This document shows positions 50,173 through 50,539 of a DNA stretch of 64,000 bases, piece after piece. The notes under the pieces were generated by a model. It saw only the letters and a program-made list of their open reading frames with translations, made no database searches and was not told the DNA's origin. The stretch covers positions 372,001-436,000 of the forward strand of contig OZ024753.1 in assembly GCA_964016885.1 (NCBI GenBank), in the 5' to 3' direction. Numbering within the stretch: the stretch's first letter is position 1; each line of letters starts with the position of its first letter. A program made the translations under genes and the position numbers. The stretch comes from Eledone cirrhosa. Lineage: Eukaryota.

Positions 50173-50226
<54 letters not shown>

Positions 50227-50295
50227 TATGAAGAGAGAAGAAACATTTAGATATAATTAGTAATAAAATGTATCATACCTAAACTGTTCCTAAAT

Positions 50296-50383
50296 TCCTC
50301 GACTACGTAGTTTCGTGGCATAAACAAAAACAATATATCAAAGATATAGAGTCCTTGCGAGGTCTGCCGACTTATCAAGAGGA
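50296..50383 (-). ncRNA. Type I hammerhead-like motif (family C), core TTGATAA
   Basis: - strand: TCCTC-TTGATAA-GTCGGCA...TGCCAC-GAAA-CTACGTAG-TC-GAGGA, within a 50224-50508 insert in (TA)n. Confidence 0.7.
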
Positions 50384-50539
50384 TACCTCATTTTACTAGT
50401 CTCAAGAACGCGTCTACACGACGTGAGAAAGAATCCCAAAAGGCGGAGGGGGAGATAGTCACGCGATATAACGGTCGAGAAACAGAGCTAAGCCTCTTAT
50501 AACCACGATATATACAGATATATATATATATATATATAC

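Follow-up and report, generated by a model that had tools for sequence, protein, structure and literature searches.

A conserved U3-A8 hammerhead ribozyme in a retrozyme-like, probably Penelope-dependent repeat of Eledone cirrhosa

The insert on the minus strand at positions 50224..50508 of the window, the 64,000-nucleotide stretch of Eledone cirrhosa DNA analysed here, is a truncated member of a non-coding repeat family (family C) that is young and present in high copy number. The family is likely mobilised by the enzymes of Penelope-like elements (PLEs), and it carries a type I hammerhead in which a U3-A8 pair likely takes the place of C3-G8 and allows self-cleavage after GUC. As judged from genomic sequence, the U3-A8 hammerhead of this apparently PLE-dependent, retrozyme-like repeat is real, fixed and conserved, and self-cleavage activity is likely.

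The insert is 285 bp long, is bordered by (TA)n runs on both sides, and represents a 5'-truncated solo copy corresponding to positions 253-538 of a 591-bp unit, with 99.3% identity to a natural unit in locus L005. Read on the minus strand, a motif scan places the stem I 5' strand TCCTC at 50379..50383, paired with its 3' strand GAGGA at 50296..50300, followed by the core UUGAUAA (TTGATAA in the DNA; 50372..50378), with U3 at 50378 and A8 at 50373. The stem II 5' strand, GT(C)GGC with one bulged C (50366..50371), forms 5 pairs with GCCAC, the 3' strand at 50315..50319. GAAA and stem III occupy 50302..50314, the latter as the 10-nt palindrome ACTACGTAGT at 50311-50302, and the predicted cleavage site of the GUC triplet lies 3' of C17 in hammerhead numbering (50301; 50300..50301). 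The three stems and GUC proposed in the initial annotation are thus all present, on the minus strand, as is its core with C3 changed to U and G8 to A (50378-50372). That annotation passed over the internally structured loop 2 of about 46 nt, which includes the strand ACCUCG (50358..50363), a predicted pseudoknot partner of the 5' flank strand UGAGGU (50385..50390), and after it an additional hairpin and a short U-rich linker (50325..50357), all on the minus strand.

The motif displays a core with a Watson-Crick swap at 3-8, the GAAA, A15.1-U16.1 and an NUH triplet, in a type I topology of three stems surrounding the core with stem I open. Its order of core, GAAA and site is not that of the non-circularly permuted types CSG and SGC, and a scan for permuted hammerheads, run without a positive control, returned 0 matches in 1.37 Mb of sampled loci. 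In the 3.0-Gb genome, a 24-mer that covers the motif's 3' half matches exactly at 7,444 places and its reversed control at 0, and the motif is therefore not a product of chance. With positions 3 and 8 left free, a descriptor recovers five type I motifs in the window, namely the U3-A8 motif of the insert and four with C3-G8. The suggestion that standard searches would overlook this variant is borne out for Rfam, which gives no hammerhead match to the insert at the gathering score or at E values up to 10. The RNAfold z-score of the insert is only -1.23, which counts against a free-standing fold.

The unit of family C has 42% GC and a longest ATG frame of 75 aa, and many of the 24-mer matches are spaced 591-595 bp apart, such that the repeat has the tandem non-coding units, the type I hammerhead in each and the GC content under 50% that typify retrozymes. 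Its insertions are of PLE type, with fixed 3' ends and a tail, 5' truncation, inverted arms and partial tandems. Among 69 3' ends in sampled loci, 42 fall at unit positions 534-541, an end represented in the window at 50224..50233 on the minus strand, and 23 at 114-116, nearly all of them joined to (TA)n; 63 5' ends are scattered over 56 positions, and many insertions bear an inverted 5' arm. The available text of PMC8557442 describes this pattern of fixed 3' ends, 5' truncation and inverted arms for Penelope-like elements, and that of PMC11167929 explains the 'tail' of an active PLE by two internal reverse-transcription starts, an arrangement that the ends of family C match. The tail in family C is about 165 nt, compared to 30-40 bp in the PLEs of these two sources, as far as their accessible text goes.

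No excess of 5' ends marks the cleavage site. From 302 junctions in a 33-nt window, 30 were retrieved, and 2 of these lie exactly there; by eye, roughly 4 of 100 junctions do, much as at neighbouring positions, which have about 4 each on the 3' side and fewer than 2 each on the 5' side. Three independent ends at 460-462 had hinted at run-off there, but a targeted search did not uphold this, and the lack of an end spike indicates templates that are either ligated or uncut. Tandem units differ by 0.6% within one insertion as opposed to 2.7% between insertions, and in a rolling-circle test based on private variants, 18.5 were shared versus 69 single in the young subfamily, and 15 versus 179 in the old. 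A single 591-nt circular contig found in two sequencing runs was rejected as circular RNA and attributed to trace genomic DNA, because the same runs contain a host SINE, which may resemble octopus repeats, at 15- to 140-fold the depth, as in a DNA-like run; one run has a far higher SINE-to-unit ratio. No RNA run is listed among the sequencing runs that contain the unit, a result without bearing on expression.

A plausible cycle would begin with the transcription of tandem copies, in which each ribozyme may fold so that the predicted pseudoknot of the 5' flank with loop 2 holds stems I and II side by side, while the palindromic stem III would allow two ribozymes to pair as a dimer. Cleavage would release units from multimeric or host transcripts, possibly with circularisation. 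Nicking of (TA)n DNA by a PLE protein would let reverse transcription begin at either of two internal starts, located 78 nt and about 245 nt beyond the cleavage site, the first being represented in the window by the 3' end at 50224..50233; the ligated or uncut site would be read through. The solo copy in the window, with its one ribozyme, could not excise a unit by itself.

The variant core is a fixed state of family C. Across the genome, a pattern with positions 3, 7 and 8 left free has 6,308 matches, 6,268 of which read UUGAUAA. U3 is replaced in 11 copies (by C in 5, G in 4 and A in 2), all of which retain A8, and A8 is replaced in 16 copies that keep U3 (by G in 9, U in 5 and C in 2). None of these 27 family C copies altered at position 3 or 8 combines C3 with G8, so the CTGATGA copies that would have pointed to independent decay of the insert were not encountered. 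In 15 insertions, a second copy identified at the locus is normal, and in 2 others (L050/L051 and L053/L054) both tandem copies have the 3-8 mismatch, a point against the explanation preferred here; altered copies thus mostly reflect decay after insertion. U3/A8 is the state of the family rather than decay, and the pair is also kept in a subfamily of about 75% identity. The proposal of a functional compensatory variant is accordingly supported by the conservation of the core pair and scaffold, and cleavage itself is likely. Its novelty is lower than was implied, since natural U3-A8 has been on record since 2011 and, for PLE hammerheads, since 2014: the available text of Perreault 2011 (PMC3088659) reports the natural covariation and states that such cores are active in vitro, and that of Cervera and de la Pena 2014 (PMC4209133) counts about 1,300 U3-A8 motifs from Schistosoma PLEs.

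The structure surrounding the core was assessed in 22 hand-picked copies prefiltered for an intact core and stems I-III, in which the invariance of those elements is by construction. The loop-2 hairpin is kept in both the main subfamily (C1) and the more diverged one (C2), with 13 pairs and 97.6% of cells paired; 10 of the pairs vary on one side and 1 on both, in a comparison where related sequences may exceed the shuffles. Six bases lying just 5' of stem I can pair with the beginning of loop 2, with 2 pairs changed on both sides, each in single copies, and would form a predicted pseudoknot of 5-6 bp, for which the windows were picked after the helix had been seen. Compared to shuffles, the complementarity in these post hoc windows gives p values of 0.008 for C1, 0.002 for C2, and 0.0014 and 0.17 for two further repeat families, A and B; a plain-hairpin family in the same comparison gives 0.95. 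The active fold is predicted at -18.4 kcal/mol without the pseudoknot, which at 3.7 kcal/mol above the minimum of -22.1 weighs against it, and the pseudoknot helix as a free duplex at about -6.9 kcal/mol. Stem III is predicted not to fold alone, and its dimer duplex to have -12.9 kcal/mol.

Families A (window 51378-52539) and B (52628-53987) are repeats in tandem and inverted arrangement that are without sequence similarity to family C, yet share its predicted extended layout with C3-G8 cores. Family A, with 4,750 genomic matches, has a GUU site and is mismatched (C-A) at 10.1-11.1. Four pairs of its stem II and inner hairpin covary, and its pseudoknot strands are nearly unchanged in diverged subfamilies. 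The loop-2 hairpin and the pseudoknot are predicted features common to all three families. It is conceivable, though on balance doubtful, that A, B and C make up an unrecognised extended class of type I hammerhead (more than 12,000 copies in one genome), in which the pseudoknot and loop-2 hairpin give an active ribozyme and let it carry U3-A8 as the weaker pair, spread in vivo depends on cleavage, and a link to CSG hammerheads of Naiad 3' ends is provided by the same helix. No description of family C or of a long structured loop 2 was found in the literature within view, which left out figures, most subscription papers and bioRxiv supplements.

Subfamily C1 is very young, at about 0.2% change per site, and fixation within it consequently says little. 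The more informative comparison is with C2, which has 159 genomic matches to its 3' pattern, is about 75% identical to C1, and is connected to it by intermediates at 85-92% identity in which the whole scaffold is kept. Between the column majorities of 19 C1 and 29 C2 copies (the best 30 of a whole-unit search, less one duplicate), the scaffold differs at 0 of 41 positions and the remainder at 105 of 481 (p 7e-5), with differences at 1/12 pseudoknot and 12/39 loop-2 positions. The unbiased half of the scaffold is the 3' one, since C2 initially came to light with a 5'-half pattern; by itself it shows 0/23 differences (p 0.004). A separate multiple alignment gives 1/42 versus 130/520, the 1 arising from gap placement. 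Singleton changes among the 29 C2 copies occur at equal rates in the scaffold (20/1,217 cells, 1.64%) and elsewhere (195/12,289, 1.59%), so the motif is no mutational cold spot. Selection thus acts on the ribozyme, which is conserved between copies that amplified and decays like the rest of the unit after insertion. Short blocks outside the ribozyme, at unit positions of about 200-320 (L005:1260-1380), are also conserved between the subfamilies and include two CCCTCCGC boxes, which may correspond to the GC boxes of an internal promoter.

The pairing of positions 3 and 8 extends beyond family C. In 1.29 Mb of sampled loci, mutant-selected loci omitted, a free descriptor yields 14 hammerhead families with at least two copies, 7 with C-G, 7 with U-A (2 of which look like false positives) and 0 mixed, in addition to 8 singletons, 2 of them mismatched at 3-8. 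Position 3 thus appears to covary with position 8 over unrelated families in the genome. Loci L208, L202 and L119 hold more small U3-A8 hammerhead families with unrelated stems, and L298 and L308 hold hammerhead-like motifs with an apparent additional A near core position 3. The window itself contains, at 24091-24308 (-), a remnant of a Neptune-like PLE terminal repeat with a second, unrelated U3-A8 hammerhead (core UUGAAAA, 24263-24257), along with hammerhead inserts in (TA)n runs that have C3-G8 cores and some inverted pairs (49844-49923, 56263-56773 and 62862-63168).

These comparisons leave little room for a dead ribozyme that merely hitchhiked, in which a master copy with two core mutations was amplified and the family is too young to have decayed. 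The youth of C1 is compatible with such an account, but the retention of the entire scaffold in the older C2 and in the intermediates, together with singleton rates that exclude a cold spot, largely refutes it, and we consider it very improbable. Equally improbable is the spread of a satellite-like DNA by recombination or slippage among (TA)n runs with no RNA step; the greater likeness of tandem units within an insertion than between insertions and the microsatellite flanks would suit it, but it is strongly disfavoured by the two fixed 3' ends, the dispersed 5' ends with their inverted arms, and the selection on RNA structure.

More weight, although it too is unlikely, belongs to the reading that conservation of the hammerhead fold serves a purpose other than cleavage without help: cleavage may be slow or depend on a PLE protein, or the fold may act as a reverse-transcriptase signal for binding or folding. 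Within their available text, PMC11167929 reports a PLE hammerhead that cleaved only in the presence of protein and without which insertion still proceeded in vitro, and PMC4209133 describes minimal PLE hammerheads as cleaving weakly. Thousands of family C copies, moreover, read through the cleavage site with no end spike there. The result of PMC11167929 also counts against the explanation preferred here, as does a preprint (bioRxiv 10.64898/2026.07.22.740005) in which cleavage failed in 8 of 9 dimers of Xenopus retrozymes. Against the alternative reading, every catalytic position is retained together with the NUH triplet and the pair 3-8, and 3 covaries with 8 over unrelated families, which would be needless for a mere binding signal; a self-cleaving ribozyme remains the preferred explanation.

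The most likely helpers of family C, to judge from a common core and target, are Neptune-like PLEs of the same genome. These autonomous elements, assigned by the published definition of a C-terminal GIY-YIG and a CX2-5CxxC linker, carry U3-A8 hammerheads, and one of them has a 938-aa frame and two terminal repeats. A pattern for the group has 24,395 genomic matches versus 414 for its control, and A8 was read by eye in 94 of the 100 matches listed, with position 3 read in fetched loci only. Like family C, these elements (L278, L290, L295, L297) have a U3-A8 core, a palindromic stem III and ends in (TA)n, but they differ in having a short loop 2, encoding a reverse transcriptase and GIY-YIG, and showing no sequence similarity to the unit. 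No sequence shared between the unit and an autonomous PLE was found by blastn in 30 loci of one 834-aa PLE family or in 50 GIY-YIG loci, a small sample of 10,596 candidates, and no long frame was found beside family C copies in the loci inspected. The Naiad DKA motif was not found in 1.0 Mb of sampled loci, the three stem III motifs are absent from the Naiad consensus sequences, and Octopus Naiad 3' ends bear no resemblance by eye to family C. A tree of 16 PLE proteins is too open to argue for or against a single origin of U3-A8. At 47197-49199 the window holds a PLE that is broken but has a reverse transcriptase and a GIY-YIG at the C-terminus, its 3' end bearing a minimal hammerhead-like motif with an altered core, and locus L164 (G000:C4:377435579-377439178) represents a young PLE family with unbroken 834-aa frames, Hydra clade-like by eye, in which a motif scan found no hammerhead.

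Among known systems, as described in the text available, the hammerheads of the Schistosoma mansoni Cercyon PLE (PMC4209133) share with family C the U3-A8 pair, type I topology, PLE context, palindromic stem III and high copy number; they are minimal, heterogeneous and mostly solo, whereas those of family C are homogeneous and tandem, with a palindrome of 8-10 nt and a 46-nt structured loop 2. Animal non-LTR retrozymes (PMC7229834; bioRxiv 10.64898/2026.07.22.740005) are likewise described in the accessible text as non-coding tandems with GC under 50% and one type I hammerhead per unit, and as proposed non-autonomous derivatives of PLEs. The 591-bp unit exceeds the 150-450 bp given for classical retrozymes and falls inside the 51-972 bp of the preprint, and family C differs from these elements in its variant core and in its short dispersed arrays with PLE-type inverted arms. 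Pseudoknots joining stem I with stem II are reported in the available text of PMC3088659 for all three hammerhead types, in about 40% of its set, and resemble family C in a helix of the stem I/II region that takes the place of loop-loop contacts and in natural U3-A8 examples. In family C, the predicted helix runs from the 5' flank to a long loop 2 with a hairpin of its own and a U-rich linker, a layout that probably sets it apart from those in the text of PMC3088659.

Six Naiad consensus 3' ends in File S5 of PMC8557442 (three from Nippostrongylus and one each from Haemonchus, Heligmosomoides and the spider Stegodyphus mimosarum) appear by eye to be type-CSG permuted hammerheads, in which all three stems pair although their sequences differ, and the 5' flank is connected by a long helix to the strand that follows stem II. 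Naiads are called devoid of canonical hammerheads in the available text of PMC8557442, type CSG is known from two metagenomic sequences only according to that of PMC10085705, and a literature search brought up no paper on this.

The U3-A8 swap itself is already known; what this case contributes is the predicted extended layout and the evidence of selection. The latter is population evidence that a hammerhead in an apparently PLE-dependent element is under selection, and so bears on a role elsewhere called unclear and possibly parasitic (PMC8557442) or dispensable in vitro (PMC11167929), in the portions of these sources available. Family C contributes about 6,300 U3-A8 cores, and the majority of the 24,395 matches of the second motif have them too; they are thus common in this genome, such that CUGANGA descriptors undercount animal ribozymes. 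Families A and B with C3-G8 and family C with U3-A8, all in the same predicted layout, may serve as a natural panel for the buffering of a core swap by peripheral structure.
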